Virus record (IMG/VR): IMGVR_UViG_3300029641_000003
DNA length: 64,000 nt
Strand: one strand, 5' to 3'
Source: a virus
Taxonomy: Duplodnaviria > Heunggongvirae > Uroviricota > Caudoviricetes
The translations under genes were made by a program, and so were the position numbers. The notes below the pieces were generated by a model, which saw nothing but the letters and a program-made list of their open reading frames with translations, ran no database searches and had not been told where the DNA came from. The stretch's first letter is position 1; the number at the start of each line of letters is the position of its first letter. Of the stretch, positions 8,760-57,196 are shown piece after piece.

Positions 8760-9441
8760 CTAACGACTTGTCGATTCGCGGAGTTGGCATGATGAATCCT
8801 TGCCCGCTCCACAGGCATGTTTTTTTGGTGTAATTGTCTTCCTTGCAATATGCAGTGAAGTGATAAGGATGGAATATGTGATCAGGTTTACGCCAGAATG
8901 TCGATATTTGGCTGACCGGGTTTTCAATCATGTACGGGCAACCAATCATCTTTGCAATGTCGTAACACTGCCAGACAACCTGCATTGCTTTGAACTGGAA
9001 AACCGGATCTTTTTTTGCTTTATCTGCGAACCAGCGTGCGCCAGATACAGCCAGGTCAGTACATGGAGGGAAACCGGCTAAAAATACAACTCTGTGCAAA
9101 TTTTTCCGAAGGAAATTGTAGACCTCATCACTGTCAATAATTGCGCTGATACGTGTGAGTACAGCACCTGACTCCATCAATTGGCTGCCGGACTCCTGGT
9201 GTTGCGGATCGACAATGACTGCATCAATGCCGTGTTCCAGCCAGGGGGAAACCATATTCCCTGTATAATCACAAAGACTCACCGCCAGCGGTCGGTTATT
9301 AATGCTCTGCTTCACCGCCAATGGCCTCCACCAGCGAGCTAAACATCGCGGATAATTCGCTTGTGAACAGAATGAAGTCAGCATCAAATCGCTGGGCAAC
9401 ATCTTCACGGTCGATGTCATCGTTCTGGTCATAGAGATCAT
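8635..9441 (-). CDS. divergent C5-cytosine methyltransferase-like protein
   Basis: Motif IV-like GFPPCTDLAVSG and motif VI-like ENP; motif I degenerate (LCDYTGNM); overlaps the Dam-like ORF by 125 nt and rdgC by 143 nt in other frames. Confidence 0.4.
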   Translation of the reverse strand: MISMTRTMTSTVKMLPSDLMLTSFCSQANYPRCLARWWRPLAVKQSINNRPLAVSLCDYTGNMVSPWLEHGIDAVIVDPQHQESGSQLMESGAVLTRISAIIDSDEVYNFLRKNLHRVVFLAGFPPCTDLAVSGARWFADKAKKDPVFQFKAMQVVWQCYDIAKMIGCPYMIENPVSQISTFWRKPDHIFHPYHFTAYCKEDNYTKKTCLWSGQGFIMPTPRIDKSLGDPDNRIHKAPPGPERANFRSATPYGFARAVFEANKEGIRG

Positions 9442-20448: not shown

Positions 20449-21249
20449 ATTGGCAGCCTCCTTTGACTAAGTTAAGGAGCTACCGCGTGAGGTTCCAATC
20501 TCAATGGCGGTAGCACTGACTGGGTTGGAACTACCGGCGTCAAAGGGAACCGGCCTGCCTTTCGGCAGCCCAGCCAGCACTACCATTGATCTCTGAGCTA
20601 AACGCTACGTATGGCTGTGCGATGGCATGACACAAAAAAAGACGCTTTCGGCGTCTGTGTCGCCTTTGACATTATCCGGGGTTCCAATCCCGGCACCCGT
20701 TTTTCTAAGGTGCCGTAGAAATATACCCCACGATAATGCCAGGGCGCAACAGTCAGTATTTTATGCTTTGGCAGATTTCTTTCGGGCTTGCTTGCAGGCG
20801 TAGGCCATTGCTTTAGCTTTCACTTCATCCAGCTTTCCGGTGATCACTTCTTTTCCGAGAGTGACAAACCAGTCATAGCAACCGCCAGTGATGTTCTGGA
20901 TTTGAAAGTTGAGATAGCGAACGGTCATTTTGACACCCCCAGCGCGAGTAAAGAATGCAGATTATCGCGTGAGTGGCGGACAACGAGTGATGGGAAAAGA
21001 CAGTAGCTGTTCATAGTGTAGTGACTCCTTGCTTTCGGAGCCGCCATCGACTGTTCCACGGTCTGGTGGCGGCGCAATAAAGGTTGGAACACCGTGAGTC
21101 AACGGGGGCTTTTCAGCCACCTATATTGCACCGCCATTGGTATGGCGGCGGCAATCATACGAAAAACCAAACGGTTTGTCTCAAAAAGTTGACCGGTGTA
21201 CCAATCGGTTGTGAATGTACAACGGCGAATTTCACAATTCAACTTAAAA
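20449..21249 (-). other. structured untranslated leader between operator and icd-like gene; candidate c4-like antisense RNA region
   Basis: About 800 bp with no credible ORF, several hairpins (GCTACCGC...GCGGTAGC; CTGCC-TTTC-GGCAG) and an internal intrinsic terminator (GACGCCGAAAGCGTC plus T7) at 20630-20665. Confidence 0.3.
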
Positions 21250-31263: not shown

Positions 31264-32370
31264 TCACTCAATGATTTTTTCTGCTGTCAGCCAGCTAATT
31301 TCTTGCCTGTCTTTCGGCGGTTTTAGCATGTGGGCGTATTCAGCGACATTCTCCCACGGAATTGTTTTTGCCCACTCAACGATAGCATTGTGATCTGCAG
31401 TGAAGAGTGGAATGGTGTGCGATTTCAACCACTCTAATGTTGTAACGCCATGTTTTTTGGCGTGGTGCTGTGCATGATGCCGGGCTATCACTAGTAATGG
31501 CATTGTCCATTCACTACCATCATGCATCGTAAAGCGCATTGTTTTCGGCATATCTGATTCAAGAACAGCCTCCCGAATACCCGGGAACTCACCAAGAACC
31601 ATGCGACGGTAATCATCGCCGCTTTTACCACCATACATTTCTGCGATCCCATCAAGATAATCTTGAGTAAGCAGAGGTGATTCTTCTGCGTTCAGCTTGA
31701 TGGCAGTATAAATACCACATGGATTTTCTTCAGTTTTTGCACGACCATGATGGGAATCGTAAAAGTGTCCATGTTCCTCCTCTGGAGGAGCAGACGTCAA
31801 AAGTATACGTGAGTCGCCACTAACTAAAGATGCTCTTAACATCCCGAATAGCCGATAGCTTACCAGAGCCGCGTCCATAACAATGATCAAAAGATGTTCA
31901 GCATAATATCCGGCTACATCTTCCTCATAATTTAGGCGATATGGTTTAATTTCGCAGCCCCAAGATTTTTGGTAACGATGATTGAGGCCATTTTGGTCGA
32001 TTTGAAAATACTCTCCCAGTAATGGCGCTTTTGTATTAGCTTTCTCCCAATACATATTCATGAGTGAGAGAGTTACCATTCCATTACGCTCAAAGTCTGG
32101 AGCGACCATGACCGTTTTAGACTCAGGCATCAGGATCGTATAAAGGATACAAATGATAGCCATAGCAGACTTATGCCCTATCCCAGTCGGTGTGGTAACG
32201 CTGACTGCTGAACCTTTTTGTTGAATCGCCTCAACAATTAATTTTTGCTGGTGGGTTAACTTAACCCCCATCAACTCTTCTGCTGCTAATGCCCAGTCAT
32301 GGCTATATTTGCTTACCAGCTCTCTCCACTCTGGTAATTCGGTGATGTTTTTAGGCGTCAGCATCAGCAT
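31264..32370 (-). CDS. terminase large-subunit ATPase-domain paralog lacking nuclease domain
   Basis: Aligns by eye with N-terminal half of PacB (37719-39227): SVTTPTGIGHKS vs TVTSGHGTGKSS, LLTSAPPEEEHGHFYDSHHGRAKTEENP vs [27 protein letters not shown]; only 368 aa. Confidence 0.5.
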   Translation of the reverse strand: MLMLTPKNITELPEWRELVSKYSHDWALAAEELMGVKLTHQQKLIVEAIQQKGSAVSVTTPTGIGHKSAMAIICILYTILMPESKTVMVAPDFERNGMVTLSLMNMYWEKANTKAPLLGEYFQIDQNGLNHRYQKSWGCEIKPYRLNYEEDVAGYYAEHLLIIVMDAALVSYRLFGMLRASLVSGDSRILLTSAPPEEEHGHFYDSHHGRAKTEENPCGIYTAIKLNAEESPLLTQDYLDGIAEMYGGKSGDDYRRMVLGEFPGIREAVLESDMPKTMRFTMHDGSEWTMPLLVIARHHAQHHAKKHGVTTLEWLKSHTIPLFTADHNAIVEWAKTIPWENVAEYAHMLKPPKDRQEISWLTAEKIIE

Positions 32371-41471: not shown

Positions 41472-42043
41472 AAAACCTCCCAGTCAGTAGCGATAATATC
41501 AACACCAGTTGCAAACCAGTCTGTCTGTGCCTGTAAATCCCCATTCATCATTACCAGGCGAGGCATAACCATCACATCACAACCTTCAACAATATCGAAT
41601 GCCTCTTCCGGCAGGAATTCGACGAGCTTTTCTTTGCTGCCAACACTGCCACGGAGCATCGATATATAGCTCCCTTTAGGCCATGATGTTCGCCGGGCAT
41701 CAAGCCCCTTCATCATCCAGTAAAAGGCCGATGAGAACGGGATGTTCTTTTTGGCGATGAGCACGTTATTCGCTTCTGTGTACTTCAGGAACTTAATTAA
41801 CCTTACCATTGACTCGGATAACGCAATGTACGGCTCATGATTGATTGCTGACACGCTTACGCCGTGCAGTCCAACACTTACCACAGTCATATCACCGTTC
41901 TGTGCGGTTTCGATGTTGACGCCTTTACGAACTAACGCTGCATAAAGCTCCTCGCGCTTTTGCGTCCAGCATTCTCGTCGCCCTATAAAGTCACTCAAAA
42001 CGAGATCATCTTCTGAATACGCGTTATCGTTCGCCGTTAACAT
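41468..42043 (-). CDS. hypothetical protein (191 aa)
   Basis: ATG ORF; no recognised motif. Confidence 0.4.
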   Translation of the reverse strand: MLTANDNAYSEDDLVLSDFIGRRECWTQKREELYAALVRKGVNIETAQNGDMTVVSVGLHGVSVSAINHEPYIALSESMVRLIKFLKYTEANNVLIAKKNIPFSSAFYWMMKGLDARRTSWPKGSYISMLRGSVGSKEKLVEFLPEEAFDIVEGCDVMVMPRLVMMNGDLQAQTDWFATGVDIIATDWEVF

Positions 42044-42497
42044 AACGTCTCCTTTTTTACACGCGCGACTATCCCCCGGCTGAACCGGTAGTGACGTCGT
42101 AACTTCGTATTAATTAAGGGTTACAGCCTGAGCGGCTATATGATGAATTGAAAGGAGTTGTGGCGGTGGTGCCTCCACCTGCCAGGTTAGCCACGCCCGG
42201 CGACGACACTTATCAGAACGTAGTGAATGAAAATGGCTTCGTCACGAGCGCATAGCCGCAATTACCACAACGGAGAAGGCGCTCGTATTAATTAAACACC
42301 TTTTCCTGTTGTACGCCGTGCTATTCCGGCTGTCACACCGAATCGCCAGGATGGTGAGTCCCTGAGTCCGCTATCCCTCCAACGGTGACTTGCACATTCC
42401 GGCTACCTGGTGTGCCCATGCAGTGTTAGTAAGGCACCTAACAGCTACACCAGACCGCTAACGACGCATGTGCCATACGCCGTGTTACAACCAAATG

Positions 42498-42573
42498 TGG
42501 TGGCCCCTACCGGACTTGAACCGGTGACCGTGCGATTATGAGTCGCCCGCTCTAACCACTGAGCTAAAGGGCC
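42498..42573 (-). tRNA. tRNA-Ile (anticodon CAU, ileX-like)
   Basis: 76 nt GGCCCTTTAGCTCAGTGGTTAGAGCGGGCGACTCATAATCGC...GGTTCAAGTCCGGTAGGGGCCACCA; cloverleaf with CAU anticodon and encoded CCA; near-identical to E. coli ileX as recalled. Confidence 0.8.
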
Positions 42574-42710
42574 AGATTACTGTTAATTACGCTTACGCTT
42601 TTTGCCAGAACCGCGTAAGGCTTTTGCCGCTTGCTCTACCCCGTATGCAACCACCAGCAGAAACAATAATGTCCACTCCGGGTTTTTATCGGCAAACGCC
42701 CAAAAATTCA

Positions 42711-42944
42711 TCACTTACAGCCACCTTGCATTTCCTCGGATAATTCATTGACTTTAGTGCTCAATAAGTAATCAAAGTAAAGATAAAACACAAAAGTAAC
42801 GATAGTGCTTAAAGTGTCTGAAATTGCGTATTTCAGCTCAGGAAGCATGACAAAGCAGACAAATAGCGGAAGAAATAACTGCACTATGCACAGACTCTCC
42901 TTCCACAACCATCTATATCTGAAGTCTGACAACAAAAACTCCAT
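42711..42944 (-). CDS. small membrane protein (77 aa)
   Basis: Hydrophobic segments; stop overlaps start (TGATG) of a further 41-aa hydrophobic ORF at 42583-42711. Confidence 0.35.
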   Translation of the reverse strand: MEFLLSDFRYRWLWKESLCIVQLFLPLFVCFVMLPELKYAISDTLSTIVTFVFYLYFDYLLSTKVNELSEEMQGGCK

Positions 42945-43194
42945 TGCTTGAAACTTTATTAGATTGCGGTGCCTGGTGCCTCCAGGTGACGTTAACCAGT
43001 TAACAATTAACGCCGGGATGTTTGACTTAACTATTAAGGAAAATTGTTTTAACTGTTCCGCGTGCGCTTAGCCGCATTCACCGCAATGGTAAGAGCATTT
43101 GGCTGGCTGGGCGGCGATGACGCCTGTACGCATTTGGTGATCCGGTTCTGCTTCCGGCATTCGCTTAATTAGCCAAATACTCTTAACGTTGCGC

Positions 43195-43281
43195 TGGCGG
43201 AGAGTAATGGAATCGAACCATCATCGCTTGCGCAATGGGACGGTTTTCAAGACCGCTTGAGCACCATGCTCCCTACTCTCC
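43195..43281 (-). tRNA. tRNA-like gene, type II (long variable arm), possible tRNA-Ser(UGA)
   Basis: GGAGAGT/ACTCTCC 7-bp acceptor stem, discriminator G plus CCA, T-arm GATGG-TTCGATT-CCATT, anticodon loop CTTGAAA; D-arm atypical. Confidence 0.4.
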
Positions 43282-43529
43282 AGTGATTGTGGTGGTCGGT
43301 ACTGATCTCCGACTGCGCCTCTTTTTTTCATAGCCCATAAGGCCGGTCAGTGCGCTTGATGACTGAGGCATCGATATTTACTACGCCGCCTCGTTGCCAT
43401 AGGGCGGACTTGCGCGCCAGCAACGCGCATTCACCACAACGGAAAGAGCATTTATGGCTCGCATCGCGGGAAGCGGGAAAAAACCCACGGTAGAGAGTCG
43501 AACTCTACAAATGCTCTTACCTGTTGTGT

Positions 43530-43605
43530 TGGTGCCGGTTAACGGACTCGAACCGCTGACATCCTGCTTACAAGGCAGGCGCTCTACCAACTGAGCTAAA
43601 CCGGC
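43530..43605 (-). tRNA. tRNA-Thr (anticodon UGU)
   Basis: GCCGGTTTAGCTCAGTTGGTAGAGC...CTTGTAA...GGTTCGAGTCCGTTAACCGGCACCA canonical cloverleaf. Confidence 0.85.
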
Positions 43606-43607
43606 AT

Positions 43608-43682
43608 TGGCGATGGTGGATGGATTCGAACCACCGACCAGTTGGTTAACAGCCAACTGCTCTACCACTGAGCTACACCATC
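43608..43682 (-). tRNA. tRNA-Asn (anticodon GUU)
   Basis: GATGGTGTAGCTCAGTGGTAGAGC...CTGTTAA...GGTTCGAATCCATCCACCATCGCCA; 2 nt from tRNA-Thr. Confidence 0.85.
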
Positions 43683-44995
43683 ACTTGCCGGGTACGTCTC
43701 CGGCGAGGGCTTCCACCTCCGTATGCTTTTCGGCGCACCGCGCCCTGGCTGCAATTCGGTAACAGGGGATGCACAACCCTGGCTTCCAGCGTGATTAGCG
43801 CCTTCAGCATGACGGGATATACCCGTTACAAGACATTATTCCAGAAAGCCATTAACCAATGGCTGTTACGCGGAAAGGACGTAACAGGTAAGGGCGCTGA
43901 CCAGAAAGACCTGACCCTTCTCATTCATCTGGTTAATCACACCAGCGCCCTTGCCTGTTATGCCTCCCCGTTCCCTAATACACAGACGGGGACACTCTGC
44001 GGTCGATTTTTTGACGGGGGACGACTCATACCCCGTGGTGTCAGGCTTCTTAGGCCGCTACCATCATCAGATCATCGTTTGCATTTACTTTAATGGTCGG
44101 GTTCTAAACCGCCGCAAAGTCGCTAACCATGACGAAAACACTGAAAAAACACCCACCCGAAGGTGGGCAAATATCCCACTCGCGGTATTGCCACTTAGGC
44201 GTATGGTCAACCTGGCAACTCGGTGTCCTCAACGGGGAAGGAATAACCCCGCCATACTTACCGCCGCGCCTGTCGCGGTTATCGCTACGTATCAACATAA
44301 AAGCCGACTGCCTGAGCAAGATTCACTTTCAAAGGCCCGCAGAAAGGAATCCATAGTCGGCTTTTATCTTGAAGCGGCTCTCTCTCCGCCCGTCACCGCT
44401 CTGTCTCGGTTGTCACGTTTGCCACGCCAGCCGTAACGAGGTTTAAAGTCTTTGCACGTTTCCATCACTCGACTGCCGTCTGTGGCTGTTCGTTGCAGCG
44501 GGGGTGCCTCCCCCTGGGGATATCCCCGGCCTTACCCCATTCTTTCAAGACACAATGCAAGGCCACATCCGCATAGGTGCATTACCGCAACGTTAAGGAG
44601 ACTCAGAGTCAGCAAAATAAGAGGAAAACCCAACTCTGCGCCTCCTTAACGTTGAGGATGTGCACTGATGATGACCCGATGCAGCCTGGCCCACTTAACA
44701 TACTCACTGCCAGATCATCATCAATGAACACCATAAAAAGACCTTCCGTGGCTCAAGTCACTGTCGTTTACTCCGTAAAATGCTCTCGCTGAAACCACTT
44801 TACGCACTAAACCTGCCGGGCATGTATTTGCACGGTGCCGGAGCTTTCCCTTACCTTAAAATTTACTTTCTAACACTTAAATTTGTTTGATGCTGGTGGG
44901 GAAAGACAATGAAGTGACTATCAAACCCGCAAGCGACATGGGAAGCTCCCCACCAGCACGAAAAATTCTATGTTAAGTTAACCCCATAATCAATA

Positions 44996-45027
44996 TGTTA
45001 GAAAAACAATTTTAATTTTCTAACATA
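44996..45027. promoter_or_regulatory. operator: inverted pair ATGTTAGAAAA(N10)TTTTCTAACAT
   Basis: 11-bp perfect inverted repeat; another half-site TTTCTAACAC at 44867-44876. Confidence 0.5.
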
Positions 45028-46236
45028 TTATTTCCCGTAAAGATTTTCAACTCCACCGTTCTTCTTATCCCACTCGTTCGCCCATACCCGGCAAGCATCA
45101 ATTATTTCCTGACGGCGATCGCCCTGCATGAACGGAATGCTTTCATGAAAGCTGCTTGGAATGCAGGCCACACTGAACACTGTATCAAACTCAGTCTGCT
45201 TGATTGCCTCCAACGTCTCTGGACGCATTTTCAATTCGTCGATCGGTGCATCCTTAGAGTCCATAATCCGGCGATGCAAGCGTGGAAAATCCGTTTCAAG
45301 GTACGCCATAATTTTATCTGCCAGGCATTCGTCTATGTCGGTATTCCAGTCAGTTTCGAAGCCAGGAATTCGGTAGTAAAGCGGCGTTCCCCATACTGAC
45401 GGGATCACATCCATCGTCAGCAGGCGGCTGGTTCTGATTTGCTGATGGTAATTTGCCGTCAGCAACGCTTCGCCACGTTGCCCAGTCTCCGCGACCAGAC
45501 CATGCGGAAACTCATGGATATAGGCAATAGCTTCTCTTCCGTCATACATTAGCGGGAATGTCTCTGGCCTTTGCCCCATGCCACAGGCGCGATTCAGATC
45601 ATGACCAAGCTCTGAGCACTCTCGTTTCAATGTTTCAATAATGCTCTGCGCCGCTGCTAACTTTTTACGCAGTGTGACGAGTTCGCCTTGATACTCAACG
45701 CATTGCTGATTTAGCTTGGTTAAACGCTCTTTTAGTTCCCGACGCTCTCTTTTCAGCGTGCGGTTATCTTTCTCCGCAACATCCAGTCGTTTTGTCAGGC
45801 TTGGCGGATAGTCTTTTTTGTAACGACTCAAATCGACTTCAGCAGATTTGCGCAGTGTATTTGCCTGCTCAAGACGCGCCTCCAGATTGCCGATCTCATT
45901 ACGCATATTCGCGGCAAATTGATTAACTGCATCCCCCAGGCTTTCAACTGTCGCTGATACACCAGTGACTTGAGAAAAACGGATCAAGCCATCATTAACG
46001 GCTTGCTGATATTCCTCAAACTGATCCACCAGCTTATTGTAATCAACTGCCCCATCATCAAGGAGCTGGTTGATTTCCGCCACCAGGTTATCTGTAGTGG
46101 CAATGACGCTCTCATGCAGTCGCTTTGACAGGTCATCGCCCGGATTTCGTTTCTGTATAAGCGCGATTTGTGTCCGCAGCGTTTCAATTGCGGTTGAGAT
46201 GATCTCCAGGCTTGATGATTCTACTTGCTGACTCAT
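45028..46236 (-). CDS. hypothetical protein, N-terminal coiled coil plus C-terminal globular domain (402 aa)
   Basis: Single gene bracketed by operator sites and an intrinsic terminator upstream. Confidence 0.5.
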   Translation of the reverse strand: MSQQVESSSLEIISTAIETLRTQIALIQKRNPGDDLSKRLHESVIATTDNLVAEINQLLDDGAVDYNKLVDQFEEYQQAVNDGLIRFSQVTGVSATVESLGDAVNQFAANMRNEIGNLEARLEQANTLRKSAEVDLSRYKKDYPPSLTKRLDVAEKDNRTLKRERRELKERLTKLNQQCVEYQGELVTLRKKLAAAQSIIETLKRECSELGHDLNRACGMGQRPETFPLMYDGREAIAYIHEFPHGLVAETGQRGEALLTANYHQQIRTSRLLTMDVIPSVWGTPLYYRIPGFETDWNTDIDECLADKIMAYLETDFPRLHRRIMDSKDAPIDELKMRPETLEAIKQTEFDTVFSVACIPSSFHESIPFMQGDRRQEIIDACRVWANEWDKKNGGVENLYGK

Positions 46237-56867: not shown

Positions 56868-57196
56868 AGTTACGGCCTCGTAAGTTGATAAACAACCTGC
56901 GACCCGCTGTCAAACAGGTGGCAGGACGTGACAGGGTTGACAGACTGGCACTTACGAAACCAGCAGGCCGAAGCCTCCCCATCACGCCCCACCATAATTC
57001 GGGCGTAACGTGGTTTTACGGACACAAAAATACCGCAATATCGGAAATGTGCGGTTGTCCGCGTAAGTATTCAGGCTGTCAAACCTGGTCGCAGAATTTG
57101 CTACGACGGCATGAATATAAGCCTGAACATTAGAAAGATCAACAGAATTTTTATCAAATGCTGTTTTTTAGTGACAATGTAAATCATACATTCTTG
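56868..57196 (-). other. structured untranslated leader, copy 2 (candidate c4-like RNA region)
   Basis: No ORF; hairpin CCGCA...TGCGG followed by U-run ending TTTTTGTGTC, the same tail as in copy 1. Confidence 0.3.

Follow-up and report, generated by a model that had tools for sequence, protein, structure and literature searches.

A tag-encoding, tmRNA-like RNA element with complementarity to host tmRNA in the tRNA operon leader of a P1-related phage

The DNA analysed here, hereafter the window, is a stretch of 64,000 nucleotides (nt) from a virus of the Caudoviricetes (IMG/VR record IMGVR_UViG_3300029641_000003), in which a preliminary description had singled out positions 43683-44866 as a hairpin-rich region free of credible open reading frames (ORFs) next to the tRNA genes. 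Within this region, we identified an element on the minus strand (43961-44141) that resembles the message half of a transfer-messenger RNA (tmRNA), with a resume codon, a ten-codon tag frame and downstream pseudoknots, and is preceded by a domain complementary to the host tmRNA. The tmRNA-SmpB system is the main ribosome-rescue system of bacteria, and in the textbook picture its tRNA half and its message half work as a unit. The element is evidently derived from tmRNA and is a widespread phage RNA family previously unrecognised and missed by ARAGORN, Rfam 15 and NCBI PGAP; it may well act by pairing with the host tmRNA. Its parts are as follows.

43961-44141, minus strand: the tmRNA-like element, the key module of about 180 nt, defined by alignment, covariation and codon pattern
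44095-44141, minus strand: 5' domain of 47 nt, GUGUUUUCGUC AUG GUUAGCGAC UUUGCGGC GGUUUAGAACCCGACC, antisense to host tmRNA nt about 56-107
44083-44094, minus strand: 12-nt linker AUUAAAGUAAAU, which ends with an invariant UAAAU; its U(-5) and A(-4) correspond to E. coli U85 and A86
44050-44082, minus strand: tag frame GCA AAC GAU GAU CUG AUG AUG GUA GCG GCC UAA, encoding ANDDLMMVAA and a stop codon
44036-44063, minus strand: helix round the stop codon and the last part of the tag frame, comparable to helix 5 of tmRNA
44002-44035, minus strand: first H-type pseudoknot, with stem 1 CGGGG/CCCCG and stem 2 loop GUCG/CGAC
43966-43999, minus strand: second H-type pseudoknot, with stem 1 CAGA/UCUG and stem 2 CCCCG/CGGGG

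A piece of about 200 nt (about 44141-43950, minus strand) showed 70-85% nucleotide identity to at least 235 phage records of unrelated groups, in which the copies lie almost always in unannotated gaps. Carriers are found among P1-like phages, lambdoid phages, Ackermannviridae (phiEa2809, phiMAM1, Ag3), Chaseviridae (pAh6-C), Gamaleyavirus/G7C-like phages (Bp4, ECBP1, PD38, KP8) and Drexlerviridae/T1-like phages (C1, CS01, DS8). Lambdoid prophages with the element are present in 137 of 5426 complete E. coli genomes, where NCBI PGAP leaves it unannotated, and P1's own copy is located at about 68,887-69,063, partly beneath a label reading 'dicF-like region'. A pattern scan of viral contigs yielded at least 120 loci, and 127 loci were examined in total. 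Their alignment revealed an invariant UAAAU-GCA-AAC-GA followed by a short frame ending GCN-GCN-UAA, and the resume context, UAAAU directly followed by GCAAACGA, was present in every one of the 127 loci. Among 56 representatives the 12-nt linker contains no insertion or deletion and its UAAAU and the following GCA are invariant; in E. coli tmRNA, U85 and A86 together with a linker of 11 nt set the reading frame (PMC2481249).

The preliminary description had proposed an Rfam search and a comparison with P1, both of which turned out to be the right approach, although the tag-coding element itself had escaped its attention. No match above threshold was obtained in the region, and the sub-threshold matches to tmRNA families fell on 43961-44141. 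The tmRNA_permuted and the alpha and beta tmRNA models matched the same element weakly in the window and in four unrelated phages, with 24.1 bits for the window and 26-33.5 bits for the relatives, short of the gathering score of 47 (RF04321), and the RF00023 model gave no match on the element. Full-text literature searches, in a corpus that does not cover most subscription journals, turned up nothing on the element or on its tag peptides, and neither Rfam 15 nor the tmRNA-database paper describes it.

The tag encoded by host tmRNA is ANDENYALAA. A ten-codon frame of the AN(D/E)... type, followed by a stop codon, is present in 127 of 127 loci and specifies 17 distinct peptides, of which the C-terminal end is A(A/V)A in 126 loci and AP in one. 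The tag frame is free of premature stops in all 35 nucleotide variants, whereas the two alternative frames contain stops in 34 and 27 of them, respectively. Variation by codon position amounts to 6.12/3.93/9.30 in these variants, being highest at position 3 and lowest at position 2, and the peptide ANDDVVLMAA is written in 10 different nucleotide versions. The codon-position pattern, the lack of premature stops and the synonymous versions together indicate that the frame is under selection at the level of the peptide. We also considered a small AUG-initiated ORF (AUG CAA ACG...) across the resume site, which was rejected since its length is variable and the most variable sites fall on its codon position 2.

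Compensatory variation supports the helices of the element. In the stop-codon helix, pair 103/126 is GC in 31 sequences and AU in 25, and the two helices of the first pseudoknot are paired in 99.6% and 95.4% of cells, with double-sided changes at 7 of 9 pairs. For the helix-5-like stem and the first pseudoknot taken together, 94.9% of cells are paired versus 81.4% in shuffles (none of 500 reaches the observed value), with 123 double-change cells versus 43.7 in shuffles, and slid controls are 30-56% paired. The second pseudoknot, aligned in 55 sequences, occurs with four complementary variants of stem 1 and nine of stem 2. Upstream of the tag no pseudoknot was found; this position is occupied by the antisense domain or by a stem-loop with an ambiguous pairing register.

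These results also bear on whether the element could be inert debris, that is, a functionless ssrA-like fragment carried along by islands of tRNAs and of the recurrent 'cassette hairpins' described below. Its neighbours are always hairpin modules of conserved sequence, which seem to exchange inserts among phages, as would be expected of such a passenger. However, it persists in six or more unrelated phage groups, where two pseudoknots show compensatory changes and the frame is under selection, its sense similarity to host ssrA is confined to a short stretch, and in T1-like phages it has a promoter of its own, which in phage C1 is TTGACA-17-TAGATT and ends about 10 nt before the conserved GAUAGUUUUCG of the element. 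We regard inert debris as scarcely credible.

A tRNA-like domain is missing. ARAGORN called no tmRNA in the window or in any element locus, the element itself has no T arm and no acceptor, and a T-arm scan from -900 to +1200 nt of the loci returned ordinary tRNAs only and, in about a third of the loci, nothing. The Rfam search likewise gave no match to a tRNA-like domain in the whole 64-kb window, and the complete 46.7-kb genome of C1 contains no tRNA or tmRNA call and no Rfam match to a tRNA-like domain. The element is therefore not an ordinary one-piece tmRNA and, given the C1 genome, at least some of the phages encode no partner for it. Natural two-piece tmRNAs are known, in which the template and the tRNA-like domain reside on separate base-paired RNAs (Rfam RF04321 and related families), and tRNA genes lie within 1 kb downstream of the element in about 60% of loci, so the element could in principle be half of a genuine two-piece phage tmRNA that takes its tRNA-like half from another phage RNA, either an adjacent tRNA or a tRNA-like RNA. 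Candidates for the latter are tRNA-shaped RNAs of 115-134 nt beside the element in lambdoid and T1-like relatives, one of which has a 20-bit tmRNA match. Against this, C1 carries the element with its promoter in a genome that lacks any such partner, the element has no 5' strand of an acceptor, and the neighbouring RNAs have U3-A70 in place of the alanine identity pair G3-U70 and are absent from the window and from P1; a two-piece tmRNA made by the phage alone thus seems quite improbable.

Two acceptor candidates were examined individually and rejected. The hairpin CCCACC-UUCG-GGUGGG as a permuted acceptor stem would have a U3-A70 pair and neither discriminator nor CCA, and it is missing from other phages; the neighbouring tRNA-shaped RNAs do not qualify as a general acceptor piece, being without G3-U70 and absent from P1, the window and C1. 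As an observation in their own right, these RNAs follow the element in lambdoid and T1-like phages (locus L105, about 8870-9008 on the minus strand; also L109, L043 and L064) and combine D and T arms with an acceptor stem of 8-9 bp (GUUGUGG/CCACAAC), whereas a loop of anticodon type is lacking. They are not called by ARAGORN, and the part of the tmRNA model that one of them matches with 20 bits is the tRNA-like one.

The 5' domain of the element runs antisense to host tmRNA. Its target in E. coli ssrA, nt about 56-107, extends from the 3' half of pseudoknot 1 through the A-rich linker and the resume codon to tag codons 1-6. The complementary patches, which include GUUUUCGUC and GCGAC, follow one another in the order expected of an antiparallel duplex: (UA)GUUUUCGU(C) and ssrA nt 96-106 are perfect complements over 8-11 nt in 52 of 56 representatives, GCGAC complements nt 87-91, and UUUGCGGnUUUUUA is complementary to nt 68-81 at up to 14 of 14 positions. 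The loop of the phage domain that varies in length sits between conserved complementary patches. Duplexes with host tmRNA are predicted at -40 to -48 kcal/mol, with z = -3.9 to -5.8 for the versions of the window, C1, L105 and PD38, and the predicted heterodimer is 9-12 kcal/mol more stable than both monomers.

Specificity was assessed against an empirical null of 0.92 Mb, both strands, from 120 Enterobacterales, Pasteurellales and related genomes fetched around ssrA, in which 141 ssrA segments were compared with 5898 other segments by a gapped alignment score counting Watson-Crick pairs only. Median scores of the ssrA segments were 17-25, versus 10.2 +/- 1.65 for the null, and depending on the phage version 22-127 of the 141 ssrA segments exceeded the best other segment (101 of 141 for the version of the window). 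The domain of the window scored 22.5 in the antisense and 9.25 in the sense orientation (null mean 10.2, sd 1.6). Host tmRNA thus emerged as its best antisense match within 1.8 Mb of enterobacterial sequence. We regard this Watson-Crick-only gapped score as the decisive evidence that the complementarity is specific. Sense homology of the domain to tmRNA nt 13-36 was also considered and dismissed as background (8-11 versus 21-27 antisense).

The target segment is nearly invariant across Enterobacterales, and the match falls for the divergent ssrA of Yersinia type and of Haemophilus, a pattern that fits the host range of the phages carrying the element. When a pattern was used to look for an element directed against Yersinia-type ssrA, the only matches were chance ones and ssrA itself. 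In Aeromonas phage pAh6-C (NC_025459.1, about 31,785-31,960; L375, 545-720) the element encodes the tag ANDDLMLAAA, and its 5' domain keeps the first antisense patch UAGUUUUCGUC and has GCAAU, not GCGAC, as the middle patch, which predicts AUUGC around the resume codon of Aeromonas tmRNA; a scan for the predicted Aeromonas ssrA sequence gave no matches in sequences that did not include an Aeromonas ssrA.

We put at about even the chance that the element acts by pairing with host tmRNA, replacing or blocking its template. During lytic growth, the phage RNA would anneal to host tmRNA, unfold pseudoknot 1 and mask the template, so that the intermolecular helix would take the place of pseudoknot 1, and the phage strand would leave this helix beside host nt 56 with its own resume codon 12 nt further on. 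The corresponding distance in the host, from pseudoknot 1 to the resume codon, is 11 nt, and rescue tolerates changes in the structure of pseudoknot 1 (PMC2481249). Further precedents in favour of such a scheme are the two-piece tmRNAs, with their template and tRNA-like domain on different RNAs, and the suppression of tmRNA action in vitro by complementary oligonucleotides (PMC3384345). In the full version of the proposal, which we offer as possible rather than probable, host Ala-tmRNA-SmpB would rescue the stalled ribosome, read the annealed phage template and add to the protein the tag that the phage specifies (AANDDLMMVAA and relatives). What we infer here is that the two RNAs anneal in vivo, that the phage tag is translated by way of the host tRNA-like domain and that the phage benefits; the minimum outcome would be a block of host tagging.

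The complementarity and its specificity would serve a pure antisense inhibitor equally well, an RNA that binds host tmRNA only to block or destroy it and the tag of which is never translated. It could act through occlusion of the template or RNase III cleavage of the duplex of about 50 bp, in which case the tag frame and the pseudoknots would be a scaffold or mimic that binds tmRNA-associated proteins. Such an inhibitor needs no unusual ribosome mechanics, and oligonucleotides complementary to tmRNA sequence suppress tmRNA action in vitro (PMC3384345). What it leaves unexplained is the peptide-level selection on the tag, with ten fixed codons, no premature stops and the C-terminal A(A/V)A, and the invariant U(-5)A(-4) signal with its 12-nt spacing would be superfluous for a scaffold, which is why we consider inhibition without tagging rather unlikely.

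Several points weigh against the proposal that the element pairs with host tmRNA and lends it a template. The duplex of the phiEa2809 domain reaches a z of only -1.45, and single patches are not individually significant in a genome-wide blastn-short search. By RNAduplex energy alone, the GC-rich version of the window beats the best chance segments in 0 of 141 cases. The 5' domain also pairs with the resume region of its own RNA, albeit more weakly (-24 to -34 versus -42 to -48 kcal/mol for the host), and covariation between phage and host is not demonstrable from a phage-by-host score matrix, because the target hardly varies among the relevant hosts. Directly 5' of the element, P1-like phages have a terminator-like hairpin, hence read-through or processing must be assumed. 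Finally, the hybrid would hold the downstream pseudoknots of both the host and the phage RNA, which is a steric problem.

The element forms part of a longer untranslated region that is oriented by the neighbouring tRNA genes:

42498-42573, minus strand: tRNA-Met gene
43195-43281, minus strand: tRNA-Ser gene
43530-43605, minus strand: tRNA-Thr gene
43608-43682, minus strand: tRNA-Asn gene
44965-44993, minus strand: predicted sigma-70-like promoter, with -35 TTGATT (44988-44993), a 17-nt spacer and -10 TAGAAT (44965-44970)
44992-45005 and 45016-45029: perfect 14-bp inverted repeat AATATGTTAGAAAA / TTTTCTAACATATT, which overlaps the -35 box

The region does adjoin the tRNA genes, as first described, and since all four of these lie on the minus strand, its position is upstream of them, as the 5' leader of a tRNA operon. 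The stretch reads as an untranslated leader made up of a chain of separate RNA modules. The window represents a D6-type relative of P1: phage D6 is 90% identical across 43683-44866, and E. coli plasmid NZ_CP085065.1 shows 99.5-100% identity to the stretch. The first 600 nt or so (43683-44281) are 87% identical to P1 68,736-69,347, a stretch that separates trnA-trnT-tciABC-trnI-ban from the C1-controlled promoter P1ban (operator Op72) and that in P1 bears only the label 'dicF-like region' (NC_005856.1, 68,791-68,892). The leader is the D6-lineage counterpart of the leader of the P1 Pban-trnA-trnT-tci-ban operon. The order leader, tRNA-Asn, tRNA-Thr is the same in both; they differ in that the P1 leader is immediately preceded by the C1 operator and P1ban, at the end of dmt, whereas the window has a further 700 nt or so of D6-lineage-specific hairpins and another promoter and operator.

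The predicted leader promoter has 9 of 12 consensus matches, in a position that corresponds to that of P1ban in P1. The 14-bp inverted repeat is conserved in D6-like plasmids, and a third TGTTAGAAA motif is located at 44867-44877. Since Op72, the C1 operator, overlaps P1ban in P1, we take the repeat as a candidate repressor operator of this lineage, and by analogy the tRNA operon of the window is probably repressor-controlled.

The earlier assignment of the region as free of credible ORFs was borne out. Its seven longest ORFs (33-161 amino acids) have no Pfam match at the curated cut-off, and no coding sequence is annotated in the corresponding stretch of P1 and D6. The sole PHROG match (phrog_27020, E = 5e-47) concerns a plus-strand ORF at 43791-44093, which was rejected as a gene: the matched frame is intact only in near-identical relatives, and frameshifts and stops break it up in P1 as well as in two other relatives (87-90% nucleotide identity). 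The family therefore appears to be built on spurious ORF calls in non-coding DNA.

The structured character of the region was likewise upheld, as the minus strand folds better than its shuffled versions. The minimum free energy of 44282-44980 is -262.6 kcal/mol versus -222.0 +/- 5.3 in shuffles (z = -7.6; equalled by 0 of 20), and the excess is modest for 43683-44281 (z = -2.3; 3 of 100 shuffles). All four hairpins quoted in the preliminary description were recovered, CCCACC-CGAA-GGTGGG at 44153-44168, GGGGATATCCCC at 44516-44527, and the stem arms CGTTAAGGAG/CTCCTTAACG at 44591-44600 and 44643-44652 and AAAAGCCGACT/AGTCGGCTTTT at 44299-44309 and 44355-44365.

Both interpretations that had been attached to the region, one large structured non-coding RNA over the whole 1.2 kb or the decayed remnant of protein genes found in P1 relatives, could draw on the strong fold signal and the PHROG match just described. 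Neither agrees with the remaining data. The segments differ in phylogenetic distribution, and hence do not form one large structured RNA, and an internal terminator-like hairpin separates them. A gene remnant would be expected to show frameshifted coding sequence without conserved structure, and here the structure is conserved with covariation; moreover, the first 600 nt or so align with a P1 ban-operon leader that is equally non-coding and contains no genes, so the region is not P1 gene debris, and the PHROG-matched frame is broken in relatives. We consider both interpretations highly implausible. The modules of the leader, in the order of transcription, are the following, with the tmRNA-like element lying between the terminator-like hairpin and the 'cassette hairpin'.

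44891-44959, minus strand: long hairpin at the 5' end of the transcript, GCUGGUGGGGA...UCCCCACCAGC, from the fold and a seven-sequence alignment
44663-44727 and 44589-44654, minus strand: two long hairpins, the second of which buries an AAGGAGG motif
44484-44592, minus strand: near-invariant core of about 110 nt with GGGGAUAUCCCC and GGGGGAGGCACCCCC hairpins, from a plasmid alignment
44299-44365, minus strand: hairpin AAAAGCCGACU...AGUCGGCUUUU followed by a U-rich tail, conserved in D6-like plasmids
44182-44278, minus strand: 'dicF-like' piece of 97 nt, 90-92% identical to lambdoid prophages
44150-44169, minus strand: intrinsic-terminator-like hairpin UGCCCACC-UUCG-GGUGGGUG followed by UUUUUU, also present in P1
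43882-43959, minus strand: 'cassette hairpin' AACAGGCAAGGGCGCUG...CAGCGCCCUUACCUGUU, the stem of which is conserved in sequence
43683-43881, minus strand: remaining leader running into tRNA-Asn and tRNA-Thr, P1-lineage-specific

The upstream half (44282-45030) occurs only in D6 and in about 120 D6-like phage-plasmids of Escherichia, Salmonella and Shigella. The pairing of its three long hairpins is kept, with some compensatory changes, in seven diverged D6-lineage sequences. In the hairpin at 44891-44959, 11 pairs are kept in all seven, pair 32/89 is CG, UA or GC, and two pairs differ on both sides between the window and D6; the compensatory changes in the two hairpins at 44589-44727 include CAACG/CGUUG to CAACA/UGUUG. 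The core at 44484-44592 is about 100% identical in seven plasmids, with flanks at 60-83%, and was found only on D6-like plasmids, unannotated, in 99 E. coli genomes; the Rfam searches gave no match on this core. It also contains a fully conserved frame of 16 codons, MHLCGCGLALCLERMG, with no evident ribosome-binding site.

The 'dicF-like' piece, the P1 homologue of which carries that label, has a far wider distribution: 4002 of 5426 complete E. coli genomes contain it, never annotated, and its prophage copies lie downstream of cI-type repressor genes. The DicF family model gave no match in an Rfam search of 42000-46000 (E<=1). As a speculation, the piece could be a cis-acting antitermination element, because it is sited at the start of a long operon and directly before a terminator. 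In P1-like, lambdoid and T1-like phages alike, the stem of the 'cassette hairpin' is found again round tRNAs and other inserts, and the late leader of lambda carries the same module. The last 270 nt of the leader (43683-43950) were found in 20 records, all of them P1/D6-like.

Further observations were made among and around the tRNA genes. A second 'cassette hairpin', CACAACAGGUAAGAGCAUU...AAAUGCUCUUUCCGUUGUGG, is located at 43425-43520 on the minus strand, and its loop contains a T-arm-like hairpin, GUAGAG-UUCGACU-CUCUAC, followed by a run of U (43490-43508), which resembles either a fragment of a tRNA or a tRNA-like signal for processing. At 42911-43106 on the minus strand there is a near-threshold match to the small RNA STnc100 (43.7 bits versus a gathering score of 47), and a 65-nt portion of this area matches the late leader of lambda (imm434) with 98.5% identity, which marks the tRNA island as a mosaic of lambdoid late-leader modules. 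The tRNA-Ser(UGA) at 43195-43281 on the minus strand scores 44.6 bits on the selenocysteine-tRNA model (threshold 47); in the D6 annotation it has an apparent UGA serine anticodon and no amino acid called by tRNAscan-SE. Elsewhere in the window, genes for C4 antisense RNA were detected in two clear copies (77.1 and 69.6 bits, with a gathering score of 45) and one weaker copy (42.3 bits), the C4/isrK-type matches lying on the minus strand at 20503-20590, 56914-56999, 21062-21141, 20635-20713 and 57026-57120. Each clear C4 copy has an isrK-like RNA close by, and 57068-57120 holds a c4-a1b1 target element, so that two immunity loci of the immI type are present in the window.

The tmRNA-like element accounts for the long-standing 'empty' leader of the P1 ban/tRNA operon, and its complementarity to host tmRNA suggests interference with the ribosome rescue of the host by many enterobacterial phages. 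If this is true, phages would commonly rewrite or silence the degradation tag that the host places on proteins from stalled ribosomes, which would add a new layer to phage-host conflict. P1, lambdoid prophages, T1-like phages and others would then form a hybrid host-phage tmRNA of two molecules, which could also serve as a probe of template loading, and replacement of the template, if real, would be a categorically new mechanism.

Compared with tmRNA itself (SsrA, RF00023), the element has the same resume GCA after U(-5)A(-4), the same ten-codon AN(D/E)... tag ending in a hydrophobic residue and A(A/V)A, the stop codon in a hairpin and H-type pseudoknots after the tag. It differs in that it has neither acceptor stem, T arm, D-loop analogue nor P2 helix, and therefore cannot be alanylated, in that it has only the two post-tag pseudoknots, with the antisense domain in the place of pseudoknot 1, and in that it scores below the Rfam gathering score and is not called by ARAGORN. 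With the two-piece tmRNAs (RF01849-51, RF04321) it shares the resume context UAAAUGC.AACGA, its best, sub-threshold Rfam matches and, presumably, a template RNA joined by base pairing only to the RNA with the tRNA-like domain; the natural pieces, however, belong to one gene and are paired via the acceptor stem and P2, whereas the presumed partner of the element is a complete host tmRNA, to which it is antisense at pseudoknot 1 and the template. The synthetic anti-ssrA oligonucleotides are likewise complementary to tmRNA and suppress tmRNA-mediated release of stalled ribosomes, but they are artificial DNA without a template and were used in cell-free translation (PMC3384345). In the 2014 tmRNA census, phage copies are restricted to mycobacteriophages (Bxz1 group) and Bacillus phage G, together with a molecule of mycobacteriophage DS6A that retains little beyond the tRNA-like domain and was proposed to inhibit host tmRNA, and no enterobacterial phage is included (PMC4131195). 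Like these, the element is a phage gene derived from tmRNA and, like the DS6A molecule, a partial tmRNA kept by a phage; while the tmRNAs of the Bxz1 group and of phage G are complete, the element is the converse of the DS6A molecule, the message half alone joined to an antisense domain.

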